Below, one piece after another: positions 12,751 through 54,289 of a stretch of DNA of 64,000 nucleotides. Both the position numbers and the translations under genes were made by a program. Source of the stretch: a virus. Every line of letters starts with the position of its first letter. Position 1 is the stretch's first letter. The stretch lies in the IMG/VR virus record IMGVR_UViG_3300033149_006345, positions 1-64,000 of that record. The stretch is one strand, 5' to 3'. The notes beneath the pieces are model-generated. The model searched no databases and was not told the DNA's origin. It was given only the letters and a program-made list of their open reading frames with translations.

Positions 12751-12752
12751 TC

Positions 12753-19287: not shown

Positions 19288-19290
19288 TGC

Positions 19291-19971: not shown

Positions 19972-19974
19972 AGT

Positions 19975-20486: not shown

Positions 20487-20499
20487 GTTTACCTCCTTT

Positions 20500-36135: not shown

Positions 36136-36450
36136 ATGGCTGTTAAGGTTAAACTGACAAAACTATCTTTGATTAGACGGTATAGAAAATCTGTATTGGA
36201 AGTAAGTGAGGCGGAAGCCGCCCGGATGATCGGATCAGGGCTGGCTGTAGCAGTAACTTCTTTTGATGGACCACCGGTTAATAAACTGGTAGCTTCTCCT
36301 GGTATTAAGAAAGAAGTAGCAGAAATAAAGGAGGCTGATACCGCAGAAAACCCTACTGGGAAAGCGGAGGAACCTCCGAAACCTCCGCAGAAAAACAAAA
36401 AGAAAAAATCGAAGAAGTCAAGGAAGAAAGTCAAGGTAAATATCCAGTAG
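36136..36450 (+). CDS. Small head-module protein with Lys-rich tail
   Basis: EVSEAEAARMIGSGLAV motif of small post-capsid ORFs; SD AAGGAG. Confidence 0.7.
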   Translation: MAVKVKLTKLSLIRRYRKSVLEVSEAEAARMIGSGLAVAVTSFDGPPVNKLVASPGIKKEVAEIKEADTAENPTGKAEEPPKPPQKNKKKKSKKSRKKVKVNIQ

Positions 36451-37409
36451 CACGTTGGTCTCCTTCTTTACCCTATGCACTTTGTAAGGTTGGTTGGATA
36501 CAGGACGCTGAGGTATTAGGTGGTGCTGAATTATCCAATCTACAGATAATCAAACGAGGTCTGGAGTTAGGTTTTGCTATTAGGGTTATAACTCCGGACA
36601 GTTTTGATCGTGACTGGATTGCCATTTCTGACTTTCTCATTTTCAATAACTTTTATACCTTTCCATCAAATCTTTGGCATTATTTGTTGCAAGTCATTTG
36701 GGAGTATAGGAAGCCTTATGTAATATATTCTCATGATCATCGGGATATATATGGTGAGACTGCTAGACTCTCTTTTGCATGGCGTTGGTTTAAGCATTCC
36801 TTCTTGAATGTCTTTATTTCTCCGGCACATTATGCCAACTTTAAGAAATGTTTAGGCAGTGCTGCCGAGCCGCATTTTATCTTACCCCCACCGATAGACA
36901 CCGAATTTTTCTACCCCAGGGAAGAAGTTACTAGGAAACCAAAGACTGTTGTTAATCTTACCGGTAGATTGGTTAGCAGTAAGGGTCTGATGAATGTTTA
37001 TAAGTGGGCCGCAGCAAACCCTGACTATAAGGTAAATGTTTATACGAAGTATGCCGAAGGTACCAGCGGTAAGGTTTTGGAGACTAAGAATAATATAACT
37101 ATCCATAAACCTGTACCATATGCCCTTTTGCCGTATATCTACTCTGAACATGAGTATGTGTTACATCTTCCTGAAGATTGGGAAGCGGCGGGGAGGACAT
37201 TGGTAGAGGGTTTATTGTGTGGTTGGACATTGGTAGAGGGTTTATTGTGTGGTTGTATCCCGATTTGCAATAGTAAAGTAGGAGTTGCTAGTTTCGCACC
37301 GGATCTATTGTCATACGGTCGTGAAAATCTGGCTGTGATTTTGGAGGAAGGACAGTATATTTTTTGGTACAATATTTATCGGTATTTCCAGTTATTGGAG
37401 GAAAGATAG
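36339..37409 (+). CDS. GT4-like glycosyltransferase; open frame lacks a standard start before its N-terminal motif
   Basis: Frame open from 36339; KVGWIQD..LGGAELS at about 36486-36537; EAAGRTLVE (ExE7) motif. Confidence 0.8.
   Translation, partial: YRRKPYWESGGTSETSAEKQKEKIEEVKEESQGKYPVARWSPSLPYALCKVGWIQDAEVLGGAELSNLQIIKRGLELGFAIRVITPDSFDRDWIAISDFLIFNNFYTFPSNLWHYLLQVIWEYRKPYVIYSHDHRDIYGETARLSFAWRWFKHSFLNVFISPAHYANFKKCLGSAAEPHFILPPPIDTEFFYPREEVTRKPKTVVNLTGRLVSSKGLMNVYKWAAANPDYKVNVYTKYAEGTSGKVLETKNNITIHKPVPYALLPYIYSEHEYVLHLPEDWEAAGRTLVEGLLCGWTLVEGLLCGCIPICNSKVGVASFAPDLLSYGRENLAVILEEGQYIFWYNIYRYFQLLEER
37195..37254 (+). repeat. Exact 30-bp tandem duplication
   Basis: GGACATTGGTAGAGGGTTTATTGTGTGGTT x2. 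Confidence 0.95.
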
Positions 37410-38411
37410 ATGCGGAAAAAGCTGTTGATTGGGGTATTCGTTGGTGAGTTAGGTTGGGAATATCTACGTTATCAAGGATATTTTAGACGCTATGCGAGAT
37501 TAAATTGTTTCAAAGAACAGGGGGATGAATGCATCGCTTTTACGTATTTTGGGCATGAGCTTTTTTATCACGATTTTTGCTCCGCTGTTTTTTCACATGA
37601 ATCTTGGTTAGATGGAAGAAGAGAGATAATAGGACCACCACATGCTTTTGGGCATATGCAAATGTCCTCAGCAGTATATGATTCTCTTTGTCAGTATATT
37701 TTGAATGTTGTGTCTCATTATTATGACCATGCACAATATGATATAGAGTTTGTAAAACATCCGCTGGGTGTTGCTCATAGGGCGAATTACTTTTTGCAGG
37801 ACTTTGTTGAGTTTTCGGTAAGTGAAAAAGAAATAATGTCGATTTGGATACAGTTGGAAAAGAAATATCTTATACCTGACGCACAAATTGTATGTGTTTT
37901 TCCCAGGATGAAAGGTGATAAAAGGGATTGGGGAGCCGGTAACTATGAGAACCTGATAGAGAGTTTATTGGGGTACGGTTTTGGGGTTGTTATTTGTGGG
38001 CATCCGCAACAGTCATTTTGTACGGATATGGAAACAAGATATGGGCTGTTGAATCTTACGGAGTTTCCAAGGCGTTATATTTTACCTCTTACTATTTGTG
38101 CTTTGGCGAAGAGTGCTTTCGCCTTTGGGGGACAAAGTGCCCTTCCACTTATTTCTTTAGGGCAGGGGGTACCAACAGTTATGTGGGGGTGCGAGCCTAG
38201 GCGTCATAGCCAGATTTATAATTGGAGGAAAACCGCTTGTTTATTTTTGCCTTCCCAGCAGTATGATATTTCCCCCAAAGAGGTATTAGGGGCTTTTTTC
38301 GATTGGAAGGATGGTGTTTCCCGAGATGATAGACTCTCCCCTTTCCATCTCCTTGATGCTTCATTGCTTAAAGAAGGGGAAATTTTACCCAATGAAAAGG
38401 TGAAAAGATGA
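37410..38411 (+). CDS. GT9-like glycosyltransferase
   Basis: GELGWE, KRDW...Y..L, GGQSALPLISLGQGVPTVMWG. Confidence 0.65.
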   Translation: MRKKLLIGVFVGELGWEYLRYQGYFRRYARLNCFKEQGDECIAFTYFGHELFYHDFCSAVFSHESWLDGRREIIGPPHAFGHMQMSSAVYDSLCQYILNVVSHYYDHAQYDIEFVKHPLGVAHRANYFLQDFVEFSVSEKEIMSIWIQLEKKYLIPDAQIVCVFPRMKGDKRDWGAGNYENLIESLLGYGFGVVICGHPQQSFCTDMETRYGLLNLTEFPRRYILPLTICALAKSAFAFGGQSALPLISLGQGVPTVMWGCEPRRHSQIYNWRKTACLFLPSQQYDISPKEVLGAFFDWKDGVSRDDRLSPFHLLDASLLKEGEILPNEKVKR

Positions 38412-39322
38412 AGCCGAAGATTCTTATGGTAGCGGATGTTAAAGGTTGGGCTTGGTGGTATAAGGCGCAACAGGTAAAAAAGCACCTGGCGAATGAGTTT
38501 GATATTGATATTGTATGTGTTGTTCAAGAAGGGGCATTGCCGAAAGAACTGGCTTCCAAATATGATTTATTTTTTACTTTTGCACCGAAATATTTGAAGA
38601 TGCTTAGCAATATAGGGGTGCCAGTCAAGAAACGTATTTCTGGAATAACAGCTCATTTTTTGGGATTAGAAGATGATCTTCTACGCTTTCAGAATCATGT
38701 TGTTTACTTTCATGCAAATAGCCCTGCTTTGGTAAAAATTGCAGAGAGGTATTATCGTCATGTTTTTTACGTACCGAATGGTGTTGATGAGACCATTTTT
38801 TATCCCACCAATAGAAAGCCGAAGGATGTTTTTATTGTGGGTCACGTAGGGAAACCTACTGCAAGGAAAGGTTTTGACTCGATAATTATGCCTGCTTTCG
38901 AGAAGGCGTTTTCCGGTGGTAGATCGGTAGCAACATTGAAGGTTAACCAACGACGATATTATAATGCTTTGTCCCAGCCGGAGATGAGAGAATGGTATCA
39001 GGATGTAGACGTTTTGGTGTTTGCCAGCGATTTGGATGGAACTCCCAATCCGATGTTGGAGGGTGGCGCAATTGGTATTCCTTCTATAATAAATTGTATA
39101 GGAAATGCAGAGGAATTTATTAGCGATGGGGTAAATGGTTTCCTGATGCGGGAAAAGACGGTAGATGCTTATGCGGACAGATTACAATGGTGTTTTTATA
39201 ACAGAGAGCAATGTTGGAAAATGGGGGAAGAGGCAAGAAAGACGGTATTGTCCAGTTGGACTTGGAAACAGAAAGTAGAGAACTATAGGAATATGTTCAG
39301 AGAGATTTTGTCGGAGGAATAA
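38408..39322 (+). CDS. GT4 glycosyltransferase
   Basis: VPNGVD, RKG, ASDLDGTPNPMLEGGAIGIP, DGVNGFL. Confidence 0.9.
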   Translation: MKPKILMVADVKGWAWWYKAQQVKKHLANEFDIDIVCVVQEGALPKELASKYDLFFTFAPKYLKMLSNIGVPVKKRISGITAHFLGLEDDLLRFQNHVVYFHANSPALVKIAERYYRHVFYVPNGVDETIFYPTNRKPKDVFIVGHVGKPTARKGFDSIIMPAFEKAFSGGRSVATLKVNQRRYYNALSQPEMREWYQDVDVLVFASDLDGTPNPMLEGGAIGIPSIINCIGNAEEFISDGVNGFLMREKTVDAYADRLQWCFYNREQCWKMGEEARKTVLSSWTWKQKVENYRNMFREILSEE

Positions 39323-39323
39323 G

Positions 39324-39905
39324 ATGCCAATAATTAGAGAGCACGTTCACGATGGAACCGTTTGTTATATTGAGCCGGAGTCTATTCCGTATATTGAAAA
39401 AGTGTTGCGTGAGTTCAAACCACAATTGATTATTGAGTTGGGCACAGCTTTTGGTGGTTTTACCAAGTATCTTTGCAATTGGTTTCCTTCCACTCCTATT
39501 TATACTGTAGATGCCTTTTTATACGCCTCGAAAAAGGACTTGGCGTTATTTAGGAAGAGAAACGTTACTTTGTTGCTTACTGCTCAGTTGTTCGAGGGGG
39601 AAATGACCATTCCGCTTCTTTGCTCTTTGCCTCTACGTAAATTTCTGTTCTGTGATAATGGGCAAAAGGATATTGAGGTTAGATTATTTGGTGGCTATCT
39701 GCGCCCAGGTGATTTGCTGGCTGTACATGATTGGAGTGATTATAAGCAACGTTTGGAGGGGGCTTTTGAGGAGTTTGTTGCCCATCCCATCAATAAAGTT
39801 TTGAAAACGGAAGTCGATTCGGATGTCCGCTTTTTCTATAAGAAAGATAGGAGTGGTACTAGGGTTAAACCGGTAAACAAAACGGAGCATATATGGGGAA
39901 AATGA
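39324..39905 (+). CDS. Class I SAM methyltransferase (CmcI/Methyltransf_24-like)
   Basis: IIELGTAFGG, YTVD, FCDNG, LRPGDLLAVHD. Confidence 0.8.
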   Translation: MPIIREHVHDGTVCYIEPESIPYIEKVLREFKPQLIIELGTAFGGFTKYLCNWFPSTPIYTVDAFLYASKKDLALFRKRNVTLLLTAQLFEGEMTIPLLCSLPLRKFLFCDNGQKDIEVRLFGGYLRPGDLLAVHDWSDYKQRLEGAFEEFVAHPINKVLKTEVDSDVRFFYKKDRSGTRVKPVNKTEHIWGK

Positions 39906-40816
39906 TGCCTTGTGATATAGTTGTTTCTGTGACCAAAGGATATTTTTTGTATTTGCAAATCCTTCTGGAGAGTTTTAGCAAAAGCAATCCAGATTTTTCC
40001 GGTTGTATACATATTCTTATGTATGACGAAGACGACTGGTTTCTCTCGTATTTGCGATCATGTAAACTTCCTTATGAGATCCATAAAAGATTTTTGGGAA
40101 ATGCTGTTACCAGCAAGAAGGCAACTACAGCTATGCTGGAGCGGTTTTCCTTTGCATCTGATTTGAAGAGACCGGTAATGCTGGTGGATGCTGACACCAT
40201 TTTTCTAGGTAATGTTAATATGTTCTTCGATATTGCGGGTTTGGGTTATATTGTTGGATGTGGAAATGGGAAGGATATAGAGTTTGGTTTTGGTTGCAAA
40301 GCTAGTAGATTCAAATATGGGAGACCTTTTTGTTATCCTGTACCGAGCAACATACCGGAGGTGGGGGGGAAGTGCAACTATAGAACGATTGCATTGCCTT
40401 TGTTTTTAGATCCTGTAAGGTATGGTTTTTTGTTGAAGGACGTATATGATTATTATTTTTCTCAGGATGAAGACAGAAAGCTCGCCGAGTGGGTTATCTT
40501 GCAGGCACTTTTGGTTAAACACGACTTAATAGATAAGATTTTGCTTTTACCATCACATCGAACATCAAATAGTTATCATTTTATGGTGAACCCATTGTCT
40601 GGTGTATATAAGTATAAAGAGAGGTTTTTATCATCTGCCGGAGGTGATGTGCTTATATGTCATGGCCGGGTGCTAAGCGGTTTTTGGTGGAATGAAAGTA
40701 TGGAAGCGATGAGGAATTTCTTTAGACTTTTTTCCGATGAAGATTGGTTTTTGCAAATGTGGAAAGATAATGCCCAACAGTTGCGAAATATTGTCGGTAG
40801 TTACAGGAGAGATTGA
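39893..40816 (+). CDS. GT-A fold glycosyltransferase (GT8-like)
   Basis: ILLESF..SNP, VMLVDADTIF DxD motif. Confidence 0.7.
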   Translation: MGKMMPCDIVVSVTKGYFLYLQILLESFSKSNPDFSGCIHILMYDEDDWFLSYLRSCKLPYEIHKRFLGNAVTSKKATTAMLERFSFASDLKRPVMLVDADTIFLGNVNMFFDIAGLGYIVGCGNGKDIEFGFGCKASRFKYGRPFCYPVPSNIPEVGGKCNYRTIALPLFLDPVRYGFLLKDVYDYYFSQDEDRKLAEWVILQALLVKHDLIDKILLLPSHRTSNSYHFMVNPLSGVYKYKERFLSSAGGDVLICHGRVLSGFWWNESMEAMRNFFRLFSDEDWFLQMWKDNAQQLRNIVGSYRRD

Positions 40817-41619
40817 TTATGTATCCTCTCATACAGGTTTTTCGTGGCAGTGTTAGTAGACCGTGGCAATTGAAAAGAACAACTCCGACTCTCTTTGATA
40901 GATTTAAGTATGCTGGAAAGATTGAATATCATTTAGTTGAAAGTGTTTTTGTCGATGAGTTGTCGGAAGAATGTCTTGAGTACGCAACATCGCAAGAGTA
41001 TATCACTCATGTTATAAAACCACAACGGGGCTATGGTTATGCTATAAAATGGTTTTTGGATAATATGTGCACAGCCCCATATATGATAAATTGGGAAGAT
41101 GATTATGCTGCTGTGACAGATATTCCTCTGACCGAATGTGTTGAGTTGATGGAGACATATCCTCATATAAATCAGATATGTTTTAATAAACGTAAAACAA
41201 TGTCTTATAAGTGGGCGAGACCTGGTCATGGTAGAGAAGATTTTAAGTGGCAGAAGGAACAGAGGGAATTTCCATTGACTGATGGAAGGATGATACCTCT
41301 AGTAGTGAAGGAGAAATGGTGGTTTGGTCCGGCTATTTGGCGAGTTTCCTTCGTCAAAGATAAGTTTGTTGGTTTTAGAGAACGAGTACACCACCGATTC
41401 AATGATGAAGTGTTGTTTCCTTTATTTGGTCCACGCCGTTTGCCTGATGGTTCTCCTTATGTTCCAACACCTACTGAGGTAGAAGAGGTCATTGGTTGTT
41501 ATATTTATGGGAGACATAAAGATCCTCCTATGTCTAGGCATATGCAGGAGGGGGATAGTATCTGGAAAAAGGAACTTCTAGATAAATGGCGGGCAGAGGG
41601 GAGGAAGGTATATTTATGA
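40813..41619 (+). CDS. GT-A fold glycosyltransferase (GT2-like)
   Basis: SRP..LKRT, GYGYAI, YMINWEDDY. Confidence 0.7.
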   Translation: MIMYPLIQVFRGSVSRPWQLKRTTPTLFDRFKYAGKIEYHLVESVFVDELSEECLEYATSQEYITHVIKPQRGYGYAIKWFLDNMCTAPYMINWEDDYAAVTDIPLTECVELMETYPHINQICFNKRKTMSYKWARPGHGREDFKWQKEQREFPLTDGRMIPLVVKEKWWFGPAIWRVSFVKDKFVGFRERVHHRFNDEVLFPLFGPRRLPDGSPYVPTPTEVEEVIGCYIYGRHKDPPMSRHMQEGDSIWKKELLDKWRAEGRKVYL

Positions 41620-42344
41620 TTATTGATCTTTTGGTTACGTCTGCAAGTCGTCCTGCTCTTCTGGAGAAGACACTCACTTCATTTTCGGGTAATGTGGAGT
41701 TAACACAACATTACTTTCGTGGCTTATTGCATGAGGATATATTAGAAGAGGAGCCATCCAAACAAATTATTGTGTGGGCATCTAGATTTTCCTTTTCTGT
41801 GGTTGAACACCATCAACCACATATTGGTTTAGGGCCAGCTATTGGTTATATGCTGGATAATTTTGTCACTTCAAAATATTTGTTTTATTTGCAAGATGAT
41901 TGGGAGTTGGTACGCCCATTGGATTTAGATTTGGCTATAGATTATATGGAAAAATACCCAATGATAAATCAAATTCGTTTTAATAAAAGGAAAACAATGC
42001 CTTTTGTCGGGGATAACCCTAAGAAAAGATGGTATAAGAAAGAGGTTTTATTTGGGGATAGAATTTTTACTGTGTCACCGCATTGGGTTTTGAATCCGGC
42101 TCTATGGCGAGTTGATTTTATTAGTGACAAGTTTGTTCCTTCTTACGAGTTCTGTAACTGGCGTACCAATGATGTTTTGAAACAAGGAAAAGGGCCAAAT
42201 GAAATAGATGCCGACTGGATTGCGGAAAATATGGGTACTTTTATTTGGGGTGGTATTGGTGAACCGCCCTTTTTCAGACATCTTGGGCATGGTCAAAGCG
42301 CATTAACAAAGACGGGCCAGGAGCGCCAGTATTATAGGAGATAG
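41616..42344 (+). CDS. GT-A fold glycosyltransferase, paralog of the preceding gene
   Basis: TSASRPALLEKTL, YLFYLQDDW, shared INQIxFNKRKTM, FRHLGHG. Confidence 0.72.
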   Translation: MIIDLLVTSASRPALLEKTLTSFSGNVELTQHYFRGLLHEDILEEEPSKQIIVWASRFSFSVVEHHQPHIGLGPAIGYMLDNFVTSKYLFYLQDDWELVRPLDLDLAIDYMEKYPMINQIRFNKRKTMPFVGDNPKKRWYKKEVLFGDRIFTVSPHWVLNPALWRVDFISDKFVPSYEFCNWRTNDVLKQGKGPNEIDADWIAENMGTFIWGGIGEPPFFRHLGHGQSALTKTGQERQYYRR

Positions 42345-42350
42345 TGAGAG

Positions 42351-42905
42351 ATGGGCGACGGATCAGGGGATTTGCAGAAAATATGGCATGTATATGTTGG
42401 TAAACATATTGTCTCCGGTTCTGTTTTGGATGTTGGGGCCGGATTAGGCAAGAGTAAAGGAAGATTGCTTATTGGTGCAGATGAAGTTGTTACTCAGGAT
42501 ATTGATAGGGCAAGGATGTTAGATGTTGATGTTATTTGCCCATTAGAAGAGATAACAGAAATTTTTGATTATGTTACTGCTTTTGATGTTATTGAGCATG
42601 TACCTCATCCGGTTAGCTTTTTGACGCATATGTGGAAGCGTTCCAGGAAAGGTATATTTGTCACTACCCCAAATGCTGTAGTTTACCCTCATCCTTGGCA
42701 TTTTACTCCTGCAAAGTTTGCTCTTCTTTTATCTGGTTTTGTTAGAGACAGACAGGAGGCCGAGCGGGTTGTTTTTGCTTACTTCTGTCGTTGTAAGACA
42801 GAGCAAGAGGATATTATAATTGAATCCACGTGGTCGGACTTTCTTCGAGCTGACTCCCCGATTGTTGGGTTGGGTGTATTGGTGCAGAGGAGAGAAAATG
42901 CGTGA
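42351..42905 (+). CDS. Class I SAM methyltransferase
   Basis: SVLDVGAGLG, FDYVTAFDVIEHVPHP, VTTPN. Confidence 0.88.
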   Translation: MGDGSGDLQKIWHVYVGKHIVSGSVLDVGAGLGKSKGRLLIGADEVVTQDIDRARMLDVDVICPLEEITEIFDYVTAFDVIEHVPHPVSFLTHMWKRSRKGIFVTTPNAVVYPHPWHFTPAKFALLLSGFVRDRQEAERVVFAYFCRCKTEQEDIIIESTWSDFLRADSPIVGLGVLVQRRENA

Positions 42906-43926
42906 CTTTTACCGTATTTTGGTCTTATCTAAATTTCGCAATTACATCTCTTATTTTTCACATGGTGTTATTGAGGGAGCAATACGCAACGGCTGGCGTG
43001 CCAATTGGGTTGAGTTGCAGAAGCTAAATGATGCCGCCAATTATAAGGAGCATTGCGAGTCCATTTTGGAGCAGATAGTGCGCTATCGACCTCATGTAAT
43101 TTTCTGCAATGGCATTTTTGGGGAAGACTCAGAAGCCTTTCCGGGAATATTTGATGTGCTTCTTAAAATCAGGAAAAGATTTGATGATTGCAAGATTGTT
43201 TATCATATGGGTGATCCGAGAAATGAACCTAGGTATAGGAATGACATTTCCAAACTAGTTGATATAGCTCTTTGTAATTTTGGTGGTGAGCTATTAGAGA
43301 AATTCTCGGATATTTGGAAAGTTCCTTGTTATCATTGGCCCTACGCTTGCTGGCAGTTTCCCCGATATGTAGAGAAAGAAAAGAGATATGATTTATTATA
43401 TTTGGGTAATGTGTCAGAACACCCTCGTTATAAGGACCGCACTCCATTTGTTCATTATCTTTTGGATAATGCTTCTATGGAAGTGAGAAGATTTCCTGAT
43501 GAAGAAATAGGCAATACACGCTTCTTTTTGGAAGATATTGTTCCCTATGCTAGAGGGTTATTGAGTTTAGCAGCCACTTATGATCTACCTTACTACATAG
43601 ATGCCCGTCCTTTTGAATATCTTGGTTTTGGGGGTTTGGTTTTTCGTCCAATGTCTGCTGGTTTGACGGATATTTTTGTACCTTTTTATCACTTTATTCC
43701 TTTTGATTTTATCCCCGGAGAGCATAAGTATACTATGAAGTCTTTGGAGGAAGTATATTATGAATACACGACAGTGAAGCGAGATCAGGCGGAGAAAATA
43801 CGAAGACAAGGTTTTGAGTATACCCAAAATTATCATAATTATAGGATGCGAGTTAGAGATGTTATTTTGCTTTTGGAAGGAGTAATAGAGAGGCCCCTCG
43901 TCTACTTGTCTGATTTTGACTTTTGA
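42898..43926 (+). CDS. CgeB-like (Glyco_trans_1_2) glycosyltransferase
   Basis: YDLLYLGN, RPFEYLGFGG, IRRQGFEY...HNY..RV. Confidence 0.78.
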   Translation: MRDFYRILVLSKFRNYISYFSHGVIEGAIRNGWRANWVELQKLNDAANYKEHCESILEQIVRYRPHVIFCNGIFGEDSEAFPGIFDVLLKIRKRFDDCKIVYHMGDPRNEPRYRNDISKLVDIALCNFGGELLEKFSDIWKVPCYHWPYACWQFPRYVEKEKRYDLLYLGNVSEHPRYKDRTPFVHYLLDNASMEVRRFPDEEIGNTRFFLEDIVPYARGLLSLAATYDLPYYIDARPFEYLGFGGLVFRPMSAGLTDIFVPFYHFIPFDFIPGEHKYTMKSLEEVYYEYTTVKRDQAEKIRRQGFEYTQNYHNYRMRVRDVILLLEGVIERPLVYLSDFDF

Positions 43927-43943
43927 TGATTGGAGGTTGTGGG

Positions 43944-44918: not shown

Positions 44919-44927
44919 GAGGAGCGA

Positions 44928-46238
44928 ATGCAGTTGGAGCGTATTTATGAAAAGTTAATGATACCAGAGACCGAAGATCGTGTTATTTTGGATGGAAAAG
45001 AATATTCAGCCAAGGTTGGTAAGCATAGCATTTGGATTCCTGAATTGGAGTTGAAGTTGCCATTTCAGTATAACGGCCATTTTGTTGAATATTACCATTG
45101 GTCAAGAGGGCAACATGCAGAGCGAATAAAAAATTTTACCTTTGGAACGGAACTCCCTTATGCCATGTCTTCTCTCTATAATATTGTTGAGGAATGGGCT
45201 ATTTTTTACTTGCTGGCAAAACGGAAGTTGGCTCCTCCAATTGGTGGTTTTGTCTTCTTCAAGAATATACTTTCCACTTTTCCAAAAGACGTCATGCGTT
45301 GTGACCCAAAGGGCGGATATGGTTTTTTTATGAGAGATGCTTCCAAGTTGGATAAGAAATCTTTCTCACCGGATTATTTTAAGCAGGAGTTTGTGTCAAG
45401 TGGTATATTATATTGCTCCGAGACAGCATTGGGGGATATTTGTGAGGAGGGGAGAAATAATCATATAAATGGGTATATTGTTGACATTAGGAGAAGCATC
45501 CAGGATGCAATTCATCTTCGTAAATTGCCCGGATTGGATGAGATTGCGACAGATACCTATTTAACCAGCATTTGCAAAGAAATTTTTTATCAGGATGATC
45601 CTGGGAAATTGAAAGAAAGAATTGCTGTATATGGTCAATTTCCTTTCAAACAAAGAAATAAGCCTTATCAAAGCTATTGGCTCAGGAATGAATATGTAGA
45701 AGGGGCTAGGGCTACTGAGGAAAGGTTGTCGTTGATGGGTATTCCAACTGAGCTTCCTCCTGAAACATCCGTGTTGGATTTGGGTTGTTGTATTGGTGCT
45801 ATTTGTCAAGGAATGTATTTAAGAGGGGCTAGAGATATTTTGGGATTGGAGTATCAACTAGAATATTTAGCTTGCGCCAGAGATTTAGCGAGATATAATG
45901 GTCATCAAATTTCTTACTTACAATATGATCTCTCTGATAGAGAACAGCTAGATAAGGTGATTGCTCATCTAAACAAATATTTTCCCAATGGAATTGACTA
46001 TGTTTTTGCTTTGGCTATTTATAAGCATATTGGTTTGGATAATTTGTTGTACCTTTTGGAGAACATTTCTTTCAGAAATCTATATGTTGAGAGTTCATCT
46101 GTTGAATCGGTGAAAACTACGGGACATGCCAAAGAATGTAATAAACAGTTGAATAAGCGTTGGAAAACAAAGTTTTTGGGGTATACTACTGATCGCAGTA
46201 AACGAGCGATATGGTATTGTGAAGGAGGGGAAAAATGA
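44928..46238 (+). CDS. Kinase-like domain fused to a class I SAM methyltransferase
   Basis: C-half SVLDLGCCIG, LGLEY, DYVFALAIYKH; N-half LAKRKLAPP...GD....RNN.INGYIVD resembling degenerate kinase loops. Confidence 0.65.
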   Translation: MQLERIYEKLMIPETEDRVILDGKEYSAKVGKHSIWIPELELKLPFQYNGHFVEYYHWSRGQHAERIKNFTFGTELPYAMSSLYNIVEEWAIFYLLAKRKLAPPIGGFVFFKNILSTFPKDVMRCDPKGGYGFFMRDASKLDKKSFSPDYFKQEFVSSGILYCSETALGDICEEGRNNHINGYIVDIRRSIQDAIHLRKLPGLDEIATDTYLTSICKEIFYQDDPGKLKERIAVYGQFPFKQRNKPYQSYWLRNEYVEGARATEERLSLMGIPTELPPETSVLDLGCCIGAICQGMYLRGARDILGLEYQLEYLACARDLARYNGHQISYLQYDLSDREQLDKVIAHLNKYFPNGIDYVFALAIYKHIGLDNLLYLLENISFRNLYVESSSVESVKTTGHAKECNKQLNKRWKTKFLGYTTDRSKRAIWYCEGGEK

Positions 46239-46486
46239 GTCGGATTATTACCAAACCCACACCTAATTTTTATACCTGTAGGTTGCTTGAGCCGGTAAGT
46301 GAAGCAGAGTATTACTATAAGCGTTGTGCAGAGAAGAGCAAAGGACGCTGTATTGATCATGTGTATATGAAGAAGAGGGGAGAGGATTCGACCAAATTGC
46401 AATCTTTGCGGTACAAGAAGACGATATGGACCAGGCAAGCGGCAAAAGCCCATTGTGATCAGAGAGGAGGAAGGTTTGATGTTTGA
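46235..46486 (+). CDS. Small Cys-containing protein
   Basis: PNFYTCRL...QSLRYKK..WT...AKAHC; SD GGAGGG. Confidence 0.65.
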   Translation: MSRIITKPTPNFYTCRLLEPVSEAEYYYKRCAEKSKGRCIDHVYMKKRGEDSTKLQSLRYKKTIWTRQAAKAHCDQRGGRFDV

Positions 46487-47063
46487 GTTTTTGGGTGGCT
46501 TCAACCATATTTTGGTTACTGGAGTGCAACGATCCGGCACTACTATTTGTGCTCAGATGATTGCACATGATTTAGGGTATAAATGGTATAAGGAAGAGAA
46601 AGTAAAAGGTGAAGATTGGATAGCCTTGTATAAGTTCTTGACTGATTTTCGTGGAATGAAGTTGGTGCTACAATGCCCTAGATTTTGCTATTGTATCGAG
46701 CGAGTAAGTCTACCTTCAAATGCCATAGTTTTCATGGTTAGGAATAAGAGGGAGGTGTTGAAAGCACAGAGGGATATAGGATGGGATGCTTCAAAAGAAA
46801 TGCAACATCCTTGTTACCGAGGTTATAAAGATATCGTTGAAGCCAAGAAGCAATATTGGGAAACAGTTCAGAAACATGGCATCTATAATGCTTTTGAAGT
46901 GAATTATCGCTCTTTGGCAAAGCATCCATTGTGGATTCCGGCCAGGTTGCGGAAAGATTTTGCATCAATGCAGACATCTTTAGCTTCTCCTTATACCTTT
47001 GATGACTCCCCTGAAGATAAGAAGTTGCGGGAGAAACTGTACAAGAGAGGAAGGATTGTCTGA
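46479..47063 (+). CDS. Sulfotransferase-like P-loop protein
   Basis: ILVTGVQRSGTT (5'-PSB-like), IVFMVRN (3'-PB-like), EVNYRSL. Confidence 0.7.
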   Translation: MFEFLGGFNHILVTGVQRSGTTICAQMIAHDLGYKWYKEEKVKGEDWIALYKFLTDFRGMKLVLQCPRFCYCIERVSLPSNAIVFMVRNKREVLKAQRDIGWDASKEMQHPCYRGYKDIVEAKKQYWETVQKHGIYNAFEVNYRSLAKHPLWIPARLRKDFASMQTSLASPYTFDDSPEDKKLREKLYKRGRIV

Positions 47064-47911
47064 TGTTTGGTATGAGTGTTACTGTTCCATACCGTAATCG
47101 CTTTAAGTGTTTGGATAGGTGCCTTCGTCCATTATTGCGACAGAAGACAAATTTTCCTTTTGAGGTAGTGTTTGTAGATTATGGAAGCACCGATGATACT
47201 CTGAGCTATCTTTGTAAGTCTTATTCTGCTGAGATAGCTTCTAATAAGTTGGTGCTTGTTCATTATCCTGCCGACGCATTTAATTTGGCAGGAGCACGTA
47301 ATGTTGGTATTGCTTTCTCTAATTATCCTTTGATTTTTACGTTTGATATTGATTCTATCTGCCTATCTGATACCATTTTGCAAGAGGTGTATGATTTTTA
47401 TTTGGATATGGAGCAAAAAGCAAAGAAAAATATACAAGATTTAGAACAATATAAACCACCATTGCTGACAAAAAATATACCTTACACTTATGATGAATAC
47501 AAGTATATCCCCTATGGACATATTGTCAGGACTGTTGGTTGGGGAAATTGTTTGTTGCATAAAGATATATTTTTTGCTATTGGTGGTTTGGACCATATGA
47601 CTTTTCGGGGCAAAGGATATGAAGATATGGCTTTTATGGTGTTGTGCTTGAGGAATGGTTATTATCTGGTTCAGTATCCTGATGTGCTATATCGAAAGAA
47701 GAATACGAAACTGGTAAATTTCAAGGACCATGAGTTGTCACCGGAAGAAAGGGTGGAAACATATGATGTATGGGAGGATGGTTGTGACGCTGGGGCTAGA
47801 GAACGGAGTTACAGACGCTTTCGGCTGTTGGTAGAATCCCCTGGAGTACGGTATAATTCAGTAGTTGATTGGAATCTTCTCAGGAAGGAAGGATATAGAA
47901 TAAATATATAG
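47063..47911 (+). CDS. GT2 glycosyltransferase with GT7C-like C-terminus
   Basis: VTVPYRNR, EVVFVDYGSTD, ARNVG, FDID, GGLD...GKGYED. Confidence 0.9.
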   Translation: MFGMSVTVPYRNRFKCLDRCLRPLLRQKTNFPFEVVFVDYGSTDDTLSYLCKSYSAEIASNKLVLVHYPADAFNLAGARNVGIAFSNYPLIFTFDIDSICLSDTILQEVYDFYLDMEQKAKKNIQDLEQYKPPLLTKNIPYTYDEYKYIPYGHIVRTVGWGNCLLHKDIFFAIGGLDHMTFRGKGYEDMAFMVLCLRNGYYLVQYPDVLYRKKNTKLVNFKDHELSPEERVETYDVWEDGCDAGARERSYRRFRLLVESPGVRYNSVVDWNLLRKEGYRINI

Positions 47912-47921
47912 GGGGTTATGG

Positions 47922-48125
47922 ATGATAGTTTATGTGGATGGAAAACTCTATCATGGGGCAAGAGGTTTGGTTGCTGTATGTTTTAGTGATCGGGATTTGG
48001 AACACATTCGCAATATGGCACCGGGTTGTAGAATTTATTGTGAGTATGATGCTGATTTATGGCAGGATGAAACAGAAGTTGCTTCTATTTTGCACGAATT
48101 TATGAAGGACTGCGAGAAGGAGTGA
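47922..48125 (+). CDS. Small hypothetical protein
   Basis: 67 aa, coupled to neighbours. Confidence 0.6.
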   Translation: MIVYVDGKLYHGARGLVAVCFSDRDLEHIRNMAPGCRIYCEYDADLWQDETEVASILHEFMKDCEKE

Positions 48126-49135
48126 AAATGCGCTTCATCTTCAATCTGGAAAGATGCGGTGCAGCCAATAACGGTGGCACTAAGACCATTTTTGCTAGCG
48201 CCAATACTTTAGTAGATATGGGCCATGAGGTCTTTGTTGTTTCTGATATTGAGAATAAATTTACATGGTTCCCCTTGAAAGCAGAGTTTATTCATTTTCG
48301 AGGTAAATCCAAAGAGTATCCTAGTGCAGACGCTCATATTGCTACTGGTTTTCAAACGGTCAAGCCTGTTTTGGCTTCGCCTTCTTTTACCGGTGAGAGG
48401 GTGCATTGGATTCGGGCACATGAGACTTGGATTATGAAAGACCCTACATTGGTATATCATGCCCCGACGAGGAAGCTGGTCAACAGCAAGGGTCTTCAGC
48501 AATTTATAAAAGCAAATTATGGGATTGACTCAATCATTTTATATCCTGGGATAGAGTATGATGTATTCAGGAATGTTGGGAAATATGACATTAGTTATCC
48601 CATTGGTATTGGAGCTTTATATAACCAAAAGGCACGGAAACGTTTTCCTTGGGTGGTGGACTCTTTTCGTTTCTTAAAGAGGACATATGGTCGCGCGGTT
48701 AGGTTTATTCTGTTTGGTAATGATGGTCGTCCCATAAACTTAGAGAAACTGTTTCGTTTTTCGTATGTACAACAGCCAGCCCAAGAGCAATTGGTGCATC
48801 TTTATAATCAATGCACATTTTGGCTAGCTCCTACAGAATCAGAAGGGTTGCATATTTGCCCGATGGAGGCAGCGTTATGTCGCTCCGTTGTTATTGGTAC
48901 CGATGCTCCTTTGGCGGGTATGAGCGATTGGTTGGATGAAACCACAGGTTTTGTTTCGGAAAATGATTATGACAGCTACCTCAAAATGGTTTTATTTGCT
49001 TTCGAGCAAGAACCCAGCAAGCTGGCAGCTTTGAGTATTGCTGCCAGAGATAGAATTGTCCAAAAGATTGGTTCACGCAGGCGGAATATGGGCAAACTGG
49101 TTCATCTGATAAAATTTTGGAGGAATGAAAGATGA
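48122..49135 (+). CDS. GT4 glycosyltransferase
   Basis: NNGGTKTI, SEGLHICPMEAALC. Confidence 0.87.
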   Translation: MKMRFIFNLERCGAANNGGTKTIFASANTLVDMGHEVFVVSDIENKFTWFPLKAEFIHFRGKSKEYPSADAHIATGFQTVKPVLASPSFTGERVHWIRAHETWIMKDPTLVYHAPTRKLVNSKGLQQFIKANYGIDSIILYPGIEYDVFRNVGKYDISYPIGIGALYNQKARKRFPWVVDSFRFLKRTYGRAVRFILFGNDGRPINLEKLFRFSYVQQPAQEQLVHLYNQCTFWLAPTESEGLHICPMEAALCRSVVIGTDAPLAGMSDWLDETTGFVSENDYDSYLKMVLFAFEQEPSKLAALSIAARDRIVQKIGSRRRNMGKLVHLIKFWRNER

Positions 49136-50154
49136 GAGCATTATTACTACGACAAAAGGTGCCCCCTGATGCCAATCGTATAACTTTTCCCTCGTTTGAG
49201 GAAATAGATGATATGTGGATGTTGCTTTTTTATAGAGCATGTAAAAGGCTTGGTTTCTCGTCGGTCGAGGTTTGGAATTGGGGTGGTACGAGGTATGTGG
49301 AATATGATGCGGAGGACTCCGTTAGATTTATTGAGCGGTGGCTCCCGAATTATTGGCCGGATGGTGCCTCTATTTTCTCCCCCGATGATGTTCAATTGGT
49401 TTTTGCTCGTGGTGGTTTTAGGGAATATATACCAATTCTGAATTATTTTAAGAATGCCGTGAAGATTTATTATGGAGCTGGTAAAAGACATAACCCTAAG
49501 ATGTTGGATGACCCGACTGACTATAATGCTGTTTTATGTGATACGAAGGAGCAGGAAAAAGAATTGACTTCGGCGGGATATACCGCTTTTACTTTCATAA
49601 AACCAGCATGTGATACTATTTTCCACCCTTGGAAAGCTGAGAAATATTACGACGTGGTTTTTATAGCCAACGCCCCGCAACGCCAGTTAAAGGGACATGA
49701 TTTTCTTTTTGATGTATTGAAGGGAACGCACTTACACCTTCTTGTTATTGGGATTGCTGATGCTTCTGTTATCTCCTGTGCCACTTTACGGGGAGTAAAC
49801 TCTACATTTACTGGTTGGGTACCCAGGAAGGTAATACCTCAGTTGGCTTGTAGAGCCAAGATAGGGGTATGTTGCTCTACTTCTTATGAATCGTGTCCAC
49901 GGGTTATCCCGGAATATTTAGCTATGGATATCCCGATATTAGTGCGGTCTAGTGTTCGCTTCAATACGGATTTATATGTCACGCCGGAAACGGGAATGTC
50001 GGCAGATGATCATACTTTCCTCAAGACCCTTGAGTATATGGTACATAATTATACTAAGTTTACACCCAGGAAGTATTACGAAGAGCATTTGTCCCTTGAA
50101 GTTGCATCTGTTTATTTTAGCGGACTGTTACGTCCATTTATTAGAGGTTTGTAG
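49132..50154 (+). CDS. GT4-like glycosyltransferase
   Basis: LKGH, FTGWVPR, ESCPRVIPEYLAMDIP. Confidence 0.82.
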   Translation: MRALLLRQKVPPDANRITFPSFEEIDDMWMLLFYRACKRLGFSSVEVWNWGGTRYVEYDAEDSVRFIERWLPNYWPDGASIFSPDDVQLVFARGGFREYIPILNYFKNAVKIYYGAGKRHNPKMLDDPTDYNAVLCDTKEQEKELTSAGYTAFTFIKPACDTIFHPWKAEKYYDVVFIANAPQRQLKGHDFLFDVLKGTHLHLLVIGIADASVISCATLRGVNSTFTGWVPRKVIPQLACRAKIGVCCSTSYESCPRVIPEYLAMDIPILVRSSVRFNTDLYVTPETGMSADDHTFLKTLEYMVHNYTKFTPRKYYEEHLSLEVASVYFSGLLRPFIRGL

Positions 50155-50156
50155 AC

Positions 50157-51107
50157 ATGCGTTTTTTGCGTGGTACAGATCGGTTATCAATAATTACTAT
50201 AGATTATGCCAACCGCTATAATATAGGAAATTATCATCTTAATGCCGAGTTAGCAAGTAACTTCAAGGAGGTGCGTTATTATTTCTTGGAGAATGGTTTT
50301 TCTTTGGATGACCCCTTCTTGTTGTCCAGCGACATGATTTTTATTAACAGACCACTACGAAAGACGATACAGAGAACAGTTGAGGGGGAAACCTACCGAA
50401 AGCTGAATTTCAAGTCTATTGATGGTATTGTGGTCCTTTTTGATACTGACCCACAGGTTTTAAGTATAAAAGAGCGGGCCAAAGTGATAGATAATATTGG
50501 CGTGGATCTGTTGCTATTGGGAAATAATGATGCTAGAGTTGTAGAACATAACAGGTTTTTTGGTGGACGTATTTTATGCAAGTGGCTCCCCTTTGGAGTG
50601 AATCTAGATCACTTTTACGATATGGGGATAGAGAGGGATATTGTAAGTGGTTTTATCGGCTCATATAGAAACTATTATTATGGCAAAAGAAAGGAGATGG
50701 TAGAGTATTTACGAGAGAAATTGGGCAACCGTTTCTTTTGGAAGAGGATGATAAAAGAGGAATATCTTTTGTTCCTAAATAGAATAAAACTGTTTGTCTT
50801 AGCAAATGACTTAACTGGTGGTTTCTTTATGAAGCATTTGGAAAGTATGGCTTCTGGTTGTTTGTTAGTGGCTGAATATACTCCTTTGTTAGAACGTTTG
50901 GGTTTTGTGCCTTCTGAAGATCTTATTGTATGGAATACTTTGCAGGAATGTGAGCAAGCTATTTTGTATTATGCTGTTTATGAGGGCAATCGGGGGCAGA
51001 TAATAGAAAATGCGAAGAAGAAGATCAAGGAGCATCATACATGGGCACACAGGGTAAAGTGGTTGTTAACTTGGGCAAGTGGAAAAAACCTAGATATAAG
51101 CTATTAA
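50157..51107 (+). CDS. CgeB-like glycosyltransferase
   Basis: WLPFGV, GFIGS, KHLESMASGCLL, HHTWAHRV. Confidence 0.82.
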   Translation: MRFLRGTDRLSIITIDYANRYNIGNYHLNAELASNFKEVRYYFLENGFSLDDPFLLSSDMIFINRPLRKTIQRTVEGETYRKLNFKSIDGIVVLFDTDPQVLSIKERAKVIDNIGVDLLLLGNNDARVVEHNRFFGGRILCKWLPFGVNLDHFYDMGIERDIVSGFIGSYRNYYYGKRKEMVEYLREKLGNRFFWKRMIKEEYLLFLNRIKLFVLANDLTGGFFMKHLESMASGCLLVAEYTPLLERLGFVPSEDLIVWNTLQECEQAILYYAVYEGNRGQIIENAKKKIKEHHTWAHRVKWLLTWASGKNLDISY

Positions 51108-52168
51108 ACCGTGTTGCTGTGAATTTTGGTAATGGGCTGGGTAATTTTGTAATGTTGACGCCTACTCTGCATGGTTTATCTCGGATGTATAATGCCGCTA
51201 TCGACTTGGTTTTTGATGATACATGGCGGGATAGTAGACGGAAGTCTGTAGAGGAATTGTTCGCAAGTTGTTTTTATGGCGGTGAGATTATAAATTTTAC
51301 CGGCCCATCTTCACTTGATTTGGAGCGATATAAGGCGATCTATTGGACTTCTCATGGGGAGGTCAATCCTGCTTGGGAGTATATGCGGGAAGTAGCGACG
51401 ATTAAAGCCTCATTTGAGGATGAGGATGATACCTGGAGACAAGTCAAAATACATGAGGTTGATTTTTATCTGAAGCCACTTATTAAACTTGGTTATATTA
51501 AACGACCGACCCCTCAGTTGTTTGGTTTTAACGATGTCAGAAGGGTGGTAAGAAAGGGTTGGAAGACCAGGAGAGGACAAGTTTTCAATGGGCTTTTGCC
51601 TTTGGTTATCGGTTTCTGTAATGGGTTTTTTGGAGAGGAAGACAGCGTTTGGTCAAGGAAAGCATGGCCGTATTTTGGTGAATTGGCGTTGATGTTGTAC
51701 GGGTTTTTTGGGGATTTGGTTGATATTCAATTATTTGGAAAAGGAGCACAAGAGAGACGATGGGCAGAAACGGTAGTATCTATGCTAGAAGCTAAGAATT
51801 ACTATGCAAAAAATTTTGTTGACAGGCTTACTTTACCTCATACAATAAAGAAGATGGGTGATGTAGATATTTTTGTTACTACGGATACTGGTTTAATGCA
51901 TGTGGCTGATGCCATGGGGATACCGTCGGTGATTTTATTTGGGGCGACATTGGCGAGTAAGAACGGACCATACACTATGCTACGAAAGCGACTGGTTCAT
52001 AGTTTGGAAGGCTGTGCTCCCTGTCAGAACACTTACCATTTCCATCTGTGCAAAGATTACAAATGTATGAGGTCCATCACTCCGGCAGATGTTTTTCCAC
52101 AAATTTTGGCGTTGTGTAAATCTATGGGCTTTGTATTTCCTATTTTAAGGGGGCGCAAATGGCGATAG
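51041..52168 (+). CDS. GT9 (heptosyltransferase-like) glycosyltransferase
   Basis: GLGNFVMLTP, KAWPYF, TTDTGLMHVADAMGIPSVILFGAT, CAPC...C...CMRSI. Confidence 0.9.
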   Translation: MGTQGKVVVNLGKWKKPRYKLLNRVAVNFGNGLGNFVMLTPTLHGLSRMYNAAIDLVFDDTWRDSRRKSVEELFASCFYGGEIINFTGPSSLDLERYKAIYWTSHGEVNPAWEYMREVATIKASFEDEDDTWRQVKIHEVDFYLKPLIKLGYIKRPTPQLFGFNDVRRVVRKGWKTRRGQVFNGLLPLVIGFCNGFFGEEDSVWSRKAWPYFGELALMLYGFFGDLVDIQLFGKGAQERRWAETVVSMLEAKNYYAKNFVDRLTLPHTIKKMGDVDIFVTTDTGLMHVADAMGIPSVILFGATLASKNGPYTMLRKRLVHSLEGCAPCQNTYHFHLCKDYKCMRSITPADVFPQILALCKSMGFVFPILRGRKWR

Positions 52169-52776
52169 ATACGACTATTTCCTTTGTAACTGATATTAAT
52201 GATTTGGTTGGGTGGGGTGGTCTTACTTCTAGCGATGTTACAGCTAACTCCACTCTCCTTGAGACATTGGTTAACCAAGTTGCTTCCTTTATGGAAAGAT
52301 ATACCAGCAGGAAGTTAAAAGCACGGGATTATGATTACAGCTCTGATTCAGACACGACGGATTCCATTGGGGATGGAGACGGGACTACCAGATTTTATAC
52401 GAAGCAATGGCCCATAAATTCTGTGACCACACTTGTTATTGGGGATGACACTATTTCCGCCGCCTCTGATTGGGATGATGACGGGTATTTTATCTATCCC
52501 AATGAAGGTTGCATATATTACGAAGATGGATTTGACAAATACAAGCAGAATATCAAGCTAAAATATAATGCTGGCTATAATGCGGATCATTCCGAGTATG
52601 ATCTGCTCAAAATGATAACTTGTGCTTTGGTGGGTTATATTTGGGAGAATAGAGATAAACTAGGTTTTAGGCAGGAGTTCCTTGGTAGGTACCGTTATAC
52701 AAAAGGCTCTTTTAAGGATGTAGACTCTTGGGTATGGGAAACTTTGGACTCTTTTAAGAGGCGAGGGGTGGCATGA
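52159..52776 (+). CDS. Head-tail connector (gp6/gp15-like adaptor)
   Basis: MERYTSRKL, DGDGT, WPINSV, IKLKYNAGY. Confidence 0.8.
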   Translation: MAIDTTISFVTDINDLVGWGGLTSSDVTANSTLLETLVNQVASFMERYTSRKLKARDYDYSSDSDTTDSIGDGDGTTRFYTKQWPINSVTTLVIGDDTISAASDWDDDGYFIYPNEGCIYYEDGFDKYKQNIKLKYNAGYNADHSEYDLLKMITCALVGYIWENRDKLGFRQEFLGRYRYTKGSFKDVDSWVWETLDSFKRRGVA

Positions 52777-54277: not shown

Positions 54278-54289
54278 GGAGGTTTGCTG

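Follow-up and report, generated by a model that had tools for sequence, protein, structure and literature searches.

Organization of a glycosyltransferase block in a siphovirus late operon

The DNA analysed here, referred to throughout as the window, is a 64,000-nucleotide stretch consisting of bases 1–64000 of a 76,591-bp viral contig in IMG/VR (IMGVR_UViG_3300033149_006345; CheckV completeness 70%). From 27.2 kb onwards its + strand carries a classic siphovirus late operon, as annotated with PHROGs (Table 1). Between the gene for the major capsid protein (MCP), with that for a decoration-like 150-aa protein, on one side, and the head–tail adaptor gene on the other, lies a block of predicted glycosyltransferase (GT) genes that, as argued below, is probably a virion-glycosylation module of the head–neck part of this operon. 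The initial annotation of this DNA had described about 20 coupled, co-oriented genes at this place, and this description holds: 19 + strand open reading frames (ORFs) fill positions 36136–52168, with junctions of −112 to +9 bp that mostly overlap, the single exception being a 210-bp gap at 47912–48121. GC content and skew of the block are the same as in the rest of the operon, and scans for promoters and terminators within it gave site numbers not above those of shuffled sequences. Downstream of the adaptor, PHROGs identifies head closure, neck, tail terminator, Ig-type major tail, tape measure and J-like fibre genes.

Eight of the block ORFs, which we name by their first position, pass Pfam gathering scores as GTs. 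When a GT is called firm if it passes such a score or, for the first GT of the block only, if the fold of an ortholog supports it, nine of the 13 GTs initially counted are firm; ORFs 37410, 40813 and 41586 are leads, and 39893 is weak. Two of the firm GTs, the first (a GT-B protein) and the last (51041, of family GT9), form a core pair that is central to what follows.

A core GT pair linked to the capsid gene in relatives, with a variable centre in between

Relatives were gathered with profiles of the MCP and of GT9, which gave about 25 further viral loci and one contig from a Pirellulales metagenome-assembled genome (MAG); relatives of GT9 itself are present in 25 viral loci. The order MCP, first GT with its N-terminal domain (N-domain), variable region, GT9 recurs in about 20 loci, in which MCP identity falls to ∼28%. 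The spacing between the first GT and GT9 ranges from 23 bp in L035, through 0.1–0.9 kb (L039, L040, L041/42 and L045/46) and 4–8 kb (L030–L033, L036 and L043), to 13.6 kb in the window and 18.5 kb in G001, a 33-kb related contig comprising loci L008 and L003. The window ORFs have no match in the variable regions of the more distant loci; the region in L031, for example, encodes two methyltransferases, five GT2 proteins, a hexapeptide acyltransferase and a GT17 protein. The arrangement, much as in O-antigen loci, is therefore one of a conserved, capsid-gene-bound pair on either side of hypervariable sugar-tailoring genes.

Nearer relatives retain more of the block. The GT4 pair 48122 and 49132 has orthologs in G001, L014, L017 and L020, and the decoration-like gene follows the MCP gene in all close relatives, with two copies in L017. 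G001 is laid out like the window, but its block, from the MCP/150-aa genes to the adaptor gene, is larger (20.7 kb). Its block orthologs are 47–55% identical to those of the window, compared with ∼51–64% for most structural proteins and 73% for the C-terminal part of the MCP. Additional genes in G001 encode a Methyltransf_24 protein, a further GT2 and a canonical sulfotransferase (49 bits), and also a 409-aa PAPS_reduct-domain protein, a B12-binding radical SAM enzyme and an NAD-dependent NDP-sugar epimerase/dehydratase (L008:9214–10443 and 14559–16798), none of which is present in the window. The G001 ortholog of 38408 is split in two (11939–12529 and 12520–12909). The 47912–48121 interval, the sole sizeable intergenic gap of the window's block, has no counterpart in G001, where the orthologous genes overlap by 4 bp. 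The 83-aa protein of ORF 46235 has homologs between scaffold and MCP genes in L013, L015, L016, L017, L039 and L040, and after a small protein gene in L004; this head-module gene thus changes place. These comparisons support the conclusion, drawn from the sequences, that the block is a real and selected, soluble glycan-building module of the late head–neck operon.

The downstream member of the core pair, ORF 51041, was confirmed as a member of GT family 9 (PF01075) by its score and by its WaaC/WaaF-like GT-B fold. A PDB profile search found WaaF at E 6.5e-13, and the fold matches are 3tov, WaaF (1psw) and WaaC (2gt1), with TibC at rank 9. The protein does not reach the equivalog cut-offs for these lipopolysaccharide (LPS) enzymes (TIGR02195, 49.2 vs 134.6 bits; TIGR02193, 38.8 vs 185.3 bits). 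In the alignment four cysteines, C325, C328, C337 and C342, are invariant and form the pattern CxxC-x8-C-x4-C (Cys4); the Cys4 region is of low confidence in the model, in which no N-terminal β-barrel was seen.

The GT9 query had no match among GenBank phages and the MCP profile none in 185,579 species genomes, where the GT9 profile found a single Pirellulales MAG contig of 11 kb that carries this cassette and weak, partial Ramlibacter matches. Among 301 Planctomycetota genomes only the Pirellulales MAG and one weak match were recovered, which is a weak hint of a planctomycetotal host, and the sole name returned by a homolog cluster look-up was a Thermodesulfobacteriota MAG, for a shorter homolog. 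The earlier suggestion that GT9 proteins imply ADP-heptose and a Gram-negative host is thus not sustained, since GT9 is far below the WaaC/WaaF cut-offs and these searches gave no clear host.

The first GT carries an N-domain and is apparently recoded

In 13 related loci the first GT is one ORF of 337–432 aa with the N-domain fused in frame. In the model of the fused protein the initial ∼45 residues form a β-α-β-α-β domain, followed by a disordered linker and then the GT-B domain; the L014 ortholog has a GT-B fold at pLDDT 83.5. The 14 orthologs align over their full length and share the motifs GGAELS, YEHDHRE and ER..FE..LCGC. The top fold matches of this GT mix HepE, glycogen synthase and the serine-rich-repeat protein (SRRP) glycosylation enzymes Gtf3/GtfC. 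In L004 the small N-domain is free-standing, with no GT after it within the 8.2-kb contig, and the N-domain is therefore a head-module protein in its own right.

In the window, the N-domain is a separate ORF (36136), and the GT frame is −1 relative to it, with no ATG, GTG or TTG upstream of the conserved N-terminus (KVGWIQDAEVLGGAE). Sequencing error is unlikely, because the same frame relation is found in G001, L010 and L011, which come from different samples. The locus shows overlapping −1 ORFs that are kept in relatives, together with in-frame fused homologs elsewhere, the pattern by which programmed frameshifting is recognized. The simplest reading is that ribosomes shift by −1 at the AAA-AAG codons in the Lys-rich linker, where the window has C AAA AAG and G AAA AAA and the other three contigs have two copies of G AAA AAG; a canonical X XXY YYZ heptamer is absent from the window's site. 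Two other routes to the GT were considered and judged unlikely. Non-canonical initiation would have to use a stretch that in G001 has no ATG, GTG or TTG and, on inspection, no near-cognate start; transcriptional slippage would have to act on A runs only 5–6 long, which we consider too short.

The first GT of the window also contains a perfect 30-bp in-frame tandem duplication (37195–37255), which repeats TLVEGLLCG within the most conserved motif and is unique among the 14 orthologs. Either a recent mutation or an artefact of assembly could account for it.

Capsid and tail-tube proteins of cassette-bearing phages end in serine

Ser is the C-terminal residue in 19 of 19 MCPs of this lineage, whereas the preceding residues vary: after a conserved AF.VL strand, the MCPs have short variable tails such as SAS, TAS, GGS, GTS, PES, ATS, GQS and AKS. 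Three proteins of the window close with Ala-Ser, namely the MCP (...SAS), decoration-like protein (...EAS) and major tail protein (...PAS), and in G001 the MCP ends in TAS and the tube protein in AAS. A hidden Markov model (HMM) search that was blind to the C-terminus located the major tail protein in 12 further loci; 10 of these ORFs were confirmed as phrog_807 by PHROGs, with Ser as the last residue throughout. In total, 15 of 15 tube proteins of cassette-bearing phages have a terminal Ser. They represent two tube families, and an HMM search found no similarity between the window's family and the second. The MCP and tube protein of one phage often share their last two residues (PES/GES, SAS/PAS).

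Terminal Ser is absent from the corresponding proteins of cassette-less phages (0/8 MCP and tube proteins). The MCPs of Javan255, NatCom_35866, GBK2 and Vibrio K306 lack it (0/4), as do four tube proteins of cultured Casjensviridae, which serve as controls for the phrog_807-type family and end in VA, PK, AA and SA (0/4); over all structural-module proteins of the control phages, its frequency is 1/34. In the mycobacteriophages Che8 and Corndog, the MCP and major tail protein also end in Ser (GS/GS for Che8 gp6 and gp11; GS/DS for Corndog gp41 and gp49), and none of the remaining Che8 structural proteins does.

Several related loci show other peculiarities in these genes. The MCP gene of G001 is interrupted (L008:5386–7464), with residues 1–136 encoded at 5386–5799 and 132–426 at 6574–7461; the interruption holds a 237-aa ORF (5853–6566) and may be an intron or homing-endonuclease insertion, the MCP gene being intact in the near-identical contig L010. 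In L017 (3483–5349) the MCP gene is immediately followed by one for an HNH-type endonuclease and then by two tandem decoration-like paralogs, both ending in ...NKNPATG. In L004 (6140–7081) the decoration-like protein has a C-terminal tail of ∼40 poly-Ser/His/Glu residues, and the tail of the free N-domain protein is Ser-rich. The major tail gene of L046 (14710–15557) is in two ORFs, whereas that of the near-identical L045 is intact and encodes 283 aa.

Enzymes between the core pair

The remaining enzymes of the block differ in how well they are supported (Table 1). The GT9-like ORF 37410 owes its assignment to ESM Atlas comparisons; it scored 21.9 bits against TIGR04372, under the cut-off, and obtained no GT9 support from HMM searches, from hhalign against a GT9 profile or from a PDB profile search. 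For the paralogs 40813 and 41586, PDB sequence, PDB profile and Pfam searches were without match, and NCBIfam returned nothing for 39324, 39893, 40813, 46455, 49132 or the L014 fusion. Three methyltransferases had been predicted initially; 42351, which is borderline, and the C-terminal half of 44928 were supported, and 39324 is weak. Residues 260–350 of the 44928 protein resemble ToxA-like, PRMT and WbdD methyltransferase domains, whereas residues 1–250, a putative kinase-like half, had no sequence match.

The predicted sulfotransferase-like protein (46455) retains the 5′ loop for binding phosphoadenosine phosphosulfate (PAPS), in the form GVQRSGTT (pattern GxQRSGTT); it scores under the cut-off and its 3′ motif is degenerate. 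A profile of its family finds protein-tyrosine sulfotransferase as the best solved relative (E 1e-9), and canonical sulfotransferase paralogs are present in G001, L014 and L017. With a degenerate protein whose best solved relative acts on protein tyrosine, the earlier proposal of a possibly sulfated glycan is not supported for this phage.

Hydropathy analysis predicted no membrane protein in the block, none of its ORFs having convincing transmembrane (TM) segments, in keeping with the initial statement that no flippase, polymerase or Gtr-type membrane protein is encoded. Likewise, NDP-sugar synthesis genes had been reported as missing, and no Epimerase, NTP_transferase, Bac_transf or PAPS_reduct domain was detected in the whole 76.6-kb record (70% complete); the lack of a Bac_transf domain means that no initiating phosphoglycosyl transferase was found.

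Table 1. Features of the late operon, the glycan block and the thymidylate-synthase-like gene in the window.
Feature	Position	Strand	Basis
ThyA-like (thymidylate-synthase-family, diverged) protein	19294–19971	minus	39.9 bits
terS	27215	+	PHROGs
terL	27753	+	PHROGs
SAM-decarboxylase-like gene, between terL and portal; kept in L004	30104–30616	+	phrog_3125, E 2e-15
Portal	30870	+	PHROGs
Protease/scaffold	32538	+	PHROGs
MCP, proposed acceptor, ends ...DDVASAS	34275–35555	+	phrog_10, E 7e-56
Decoration-like 150-aa protein, possible second acceptor, ends ...APEAS	35589–36041	+	phrog_5707
Small N-domain ORF, 104 aa, Lys-rich tail	36136–36450	+	N-terminal part of first GT in relatives
Putative −1 frameshift site in the Lys-rich linker, C AAA AAG followed by G AAA AAA	36396–36408	+	Frame relation of ORFs
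Core GT-B (first GT), conserved domain from ∼36480	36339–37409 (open frame)	+	Weak Pfam matches and L014 ortholog fold
GT9-like, lead only	37410–38411	+	ESM Atlas 0.98, TM 0.74–0.82 to viral 'GT9 family' clusters
GT4 glycosyltransferase (GT1/GT4 type)	38408–39322	+	Glycos_transf_1, 50.3 bits
CmcI-like methyltransferase, weak	39324–39905	+	PF04989, 18.6 bits, below cut-off
GT8-like protein, weak	39893–40816	+	PF01501, E 0.02
GT-A-like protein, paralog of 41586	40813–41619	+	36% identity to 41586, DD motif
GT2-like GT-A protein	41586–42344	+	ESM Atlas only, TM 0.71–0.80 to GT2 clusters
SAM methyltransferase, borderline	42351–42905	+	Methyltransf_23, 26.9 vs cut-off 27 bits
CgeB-like GT-B glycosyltransferase	42820–43926	+	Glyco_trans_1_2 (42820/43923 pair: 27 and 29.9 bits)
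CgeB-like GT-B glycosyltransferase	43923–44918	+	Glyco_trans_1_2 (42820/43923 pair: 27 and 29.9 bits)
Two-domain protein, SAM methyltransferase C-terminal half	44928–46238	+	PDB profile E 3e-8
Small basic Cys-containing conserved protein, 83 aa	46235–46486	+	No enzyme by any test
Sulfotransferase-like P-loop protein, degenerate	46455–47063	+	Sulfotransfer_3, 22.6 vs cut-off 27 bits
GT2 glycosyltransferase	47063–47911	+	Glycos_transf_2, 51.5 bits
GT4 glycosyltransferase	48122–49135	+	Glyco_trans_1_4, 34 bits
GT4 glycosyltransferase	49132–50154	+	Glyco_trans_1_4, 34 bits
CgeB-like glycosyltransferase	50157–51107	+	Glyco_trans_1_2, 50.7 bits
Core GT9 glycosyltransferase, invariant Cys4	51041–52168	+	PF01075, 52.2 bits vs cut-off 22
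Head–tail adaptor, downstream block boundary	52159–52776	+	phrog_442, E 4e-15
Major tail (tube) protein, Ig-type, proposed acceptor, ends ...IGGPAS	54284–54796	+	phrog_2175

The particle as the probable target of glycosylation

We favour the particle as the target because synteny between the core GTs and the capsid gene extends through a deep lineage and because the first GT is fused to a head-module domain. The position in the late head operon, the evidence of selection on the orthologs, the Ser tags and the lack of membrane or lipid-carrier components all point the same way, as far as comparative genomics can tell. A protein acceptor is likewise suggested by modelled and profile-based relationships, the core GT having Gtf3/GtfC among its fold matches and the sulfotransferase family having a best solved relative that acts on proteins.

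In the mechanism we propose, the core pair would act in the cytoplasm of the infected cell, where it would recognize C-terminal tails exposed on the capsid and tail-tube subunits (perhaps also on the decoration-like protein) and O-glycosylate their terminal Ser. The N-domain would keep the first GT at the head or at its substrate; in this clade, the −1 shift within the Lys-rich linker would yield both a free N-domain and the N-domain–GT fusion. The variable enzymes (GT4, GT2/GT-A, CgeB-like, GT9-like, methyltransferases and sulfotransferase-like protein) would then extend and cap the glycan, drawing on host nucleotide sugars and SAM. The outcome would be a phage-specific surface glycan, specified by a virion 'serotype locus' and serving in shielding, stability or adhesion. 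The initial annotation had likewise predicted a soluble system acting on the particle, which core synteny and the N-domain fusion favour; the single long glycan that it envisaged is not borne out.

Several points weigh against this interpretation. The phage is uncultured, and the virion-glycan reading derives from comparative sequence analysis. The acceptor is suggested by a correlation across related phages that represent few independent clades, set against eight control proteins. GT folds do not distinguish protein from lipid or sugar acceptors, and enzymes of polysaccharide and glycogen synthesis are among the top matches of the core GT; GT9 is nearer in sequence to the LPS enzymes WaaF and WaaC than to TibC, which is a protein heptosyltransferase. 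Downstream of the shift site no stimulatory RNA structure was detected (folding z-scores of 0.3 and 0.6 against shuffles), and the 10-residue duplication, together with the need for a frameshift, could mean that the first GT is impaired in this phage. Finally, the genome contains a diverged ThyA-like gene, which is compatible with DNA containing hydroxymethyl-pyrimidines.

The nearness of GT9 to LPS enzymes leads to the alternative that survives best, although we consider it unlikely: soluble GTs at the cytoplasmic face of the inner membrane would modify the LPS core, another glycolipid or a polysaccharide of the host, and thereby block superinfection or the adsorption of progeny to debris. 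The nearest solved and curated relatives of GT9 are the LPS heptosyltransferases WaaF and WaaC, and polysaccharide loci typically contain GT4, GT2 and CgeB-like members. WaaF and WaaC are peripheral proteins without TM segments. The absence of membrane proteins from the block is, therefore, compatible with such remodelling. However, GT9 is far under the WaaC/WaaF equivalog cut-offs (49 vs 135 bits), and no phosphoglycosyl transferase or flippase is present. The genes lie in the late operon of a phage that has replication genes of its own and in which, among the ORFs tested, no integrase was found. No near-identical bacterial LPS locus was found, the weak partial Ramlibacter matches being the only ones. 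Envelope remodelling also accounts neither for the obligatory coupling of the core pair and the capsid gene nor for the fused N-domain or the terminal-Ser tags.

It is quite unlikely that the block makes some other product, such as an oligosaccharide that is free or secreted, or a small molecule or non-virion protein (a scaffold or host protein, for example) that is glycosylated, or that it is a decaying copy of the cassette. Some erosion is indicated by the frameshifted first GT with its 30-bp duplication, by the split 38408 ortholog in G001 and by the degenerate sulfotransferase-like protein. Against decay, 19 of 19 frames are open, the orthologs are ∼50% identical and the frame relation of the first GT is identical in three or four independent assemblies.

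Phage GTs are able to place diverse glycans on DNA, and those that modify DNA usually cluster with ThyS/5mYOX and DNA-synthesis genes (preprint 10.1101/2023.12.21.572611). The initial annotation had raised DNA hypermodification as an alternative, in which glycan assembly would take place on the phage DNA, at hydroxymethylated pyrimidines, ahead of packaging. This is kept alive by the ThyA-like gene, the weak NMAD1/DUF1599 match and the MT-A70 methylase of the replication module, and by ThyA-like genes in two related records, including the sole complete one. We nevertheless regard it as very improbable: the ThyA-like gene, for which an ordinary ThyA function is also possible, lies 16 kb from the block, on the opposite strand, in another module and with no adjacent GT, so that the usual clustering is not seen; T4 β-glucosyltransferase is not among the listed matches of either fold search; 13 GTs and a sulfotransferase-like protein acting on a base would be without precedent; and neither the capsid-gene linkage nor the terminal-Ser tags would be explained.

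Comparison with known glycosylation systems

Phage particles are generally regarded as unglycosylated. The virions of the mycobacteriophages Che8, Corndog and Myrna are reported to be glycosylated by phage GTs (PMC12619734, PMC11600133, PMC12363180 and PMC11256854; after Freeman et al. 2023, Cell Host Microbe 31:1216), with glycans on capsid and tail-tube subunits at their C-terminal ends (PMC12619734, PMC12363180 and PMC11600133), and in Corndog a cassette of an O-methyltransferase and three GTs (gp35–38) lies within the head operon (PMC11600133). The window resembles these phages in encoding soluble GTs and methyltransferases together with its virion genes, and in having an MCP and a tube protein that end in Ser, the glycan sites being predicted here from the sequence correlate. 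It differs in scale, with ∼19 genes and 9–13 GTs compared with 2–4 GTs in the mycobacteriophages, and in having a Cys4 GT9, a sulfotransferase-like protein, an N-domain-tethered and recoded first GT, and a hypervariable centre. Corndog gp35–38 show no phmmer match (E ≤ 1) to any window enzyme, and the window phage belongs to an unrelated lineage for which an actinobacterial host is not indicated. On the reading favoured here, the block works like mycobacteriophage virion glycosylation without using homologous enzymes. Our literature search found no publication on such cassettes outside actinobacteriophages, and in the papers found virion glycosylation is reported for actinobacteriophages only and uses 2–4 enzymes. 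Scale, enzyme families, the tethering and recoding of the initiator, and the variable centre set the block apart from the mycobacteriophage system.

Two bacterial systems offer parallels for the core enzymes. TibC, of the bacterial autotransporter heptosyltransferase (BAHT) family (PDB 4RAP/4RB4), is a GT-B enzyme of GT9 type that O-glycosylates Ser of a cytoplasmic protein and has an iron finger formed by C339, C342, C358 and C370 (PMC4358343). GT9 of the window shares with TibC and Aah the GT9-type GT-B fold, and its four Cys, near the C-terminus of the C-lobe, may correspond to the finger of TibC. Unlike in TibC, the Cys spacing is shorter, the model has no β-barrel, and WaaF/WaaC are nearer in sequence and fold; no BAHT model is among the NCBIfam matches at E ≤ 0.01, and TibC is absent from the PDB sequence and profile matches at E ≤ 10. 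Because the Cys spacing differs and the model is poor in that region, we take the likeness to BAHT enzymes as functional analogy, not as family membership. The glycosylation of SRRP adhesins by GtfA/B and Gtf3/GtfC, which belongs to the accessory Sec system, resembles our proposal in the stepwise cytoplasmic O-glycosylation of Ser by several soluble GTs; Gtf3/GtfC are among the top folds of the core GT, and L004 has poly-Ser tails on two head-module proteins. In contrast to that system, the window proteins lack Ser-rich repeats, the fold match does not surpass that with generic GT4 enzymes and no GtfA/B pair was recognized.

In its conserved flanks, hypervariable GT and tailoring genes and GT families, the block is like O-antigen, capsule and Gtr loci; it is unlike Wzx/Wzy, ABC and Gtr loci in having no phosphoglycosyl transferase, flippase, polymerase, ABC transporter or GtrA/B/C, and in being sited within a phage head operon. 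The predicted recoding has its parallels in the −1 frameshifts of the tail chaperone G/GT genes and of dnaX, with overlapping −1 ORFs, an A/G-rich tract of Lys codons, conservation in relatives and products that share an N-terminus. It departs from them in its imperfect heptamer (C/G AAA AAG), in the absence of a downstream structure and in having an enzyme as the fused partner.

A broader proposal, which we put forward tentatively and to which we give somewhat less than an even chance, is that virion serotype loci exist beyond the actinobacteriophages. Each would consist of a capsid-fixed initiator pair (N-domain GT-B and Cys4 GT9) and exchangeable tailoring genes, and would modify the C-terminal Ser of capsid and tube proteins with a phage-specific glycan that is methylated and, in certain phages, also sulfated. 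The Ser tag would then be a general predictor that has arisen in unrelated phages, including mycobacteriophages, and in the present clade the initiator would be produced by conserved −1 recoding. A head-operon module with 9–13 GTs would show complex virion glycans to be a wider and evolving trait, which would bear on how phages bind receptors, persist in the environment and are recognized by hosts and antibodies, and on phage engineering. The module, with its conserved initiator pair and O-antigen-like variable centre, occurs throughout a deep lineage of siphoviruses from the environment. The terminal-Ser tag makes a simple acceptor prediction and provides a way to screen metagenomes for glycosylated virions. 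The fusion of N-domain and GT, apparently recoded in this clade, hints at a means of steering an enzyme to the assembling particle.

Other features of the contig

The remaining 12.6 kb of the contig encode a primase, helicases, a DnaB-like protein and a 5′–3′ exonuclease, and the window contains no tRNA. On the minus strand, positions 17812–21290 group the MT-A70 DNA methylase (109 bits), the diverged thymidylate-synthase-family protein and the weak DUF1599/NMAD1 match, and may constitute a DNA base-modification module.

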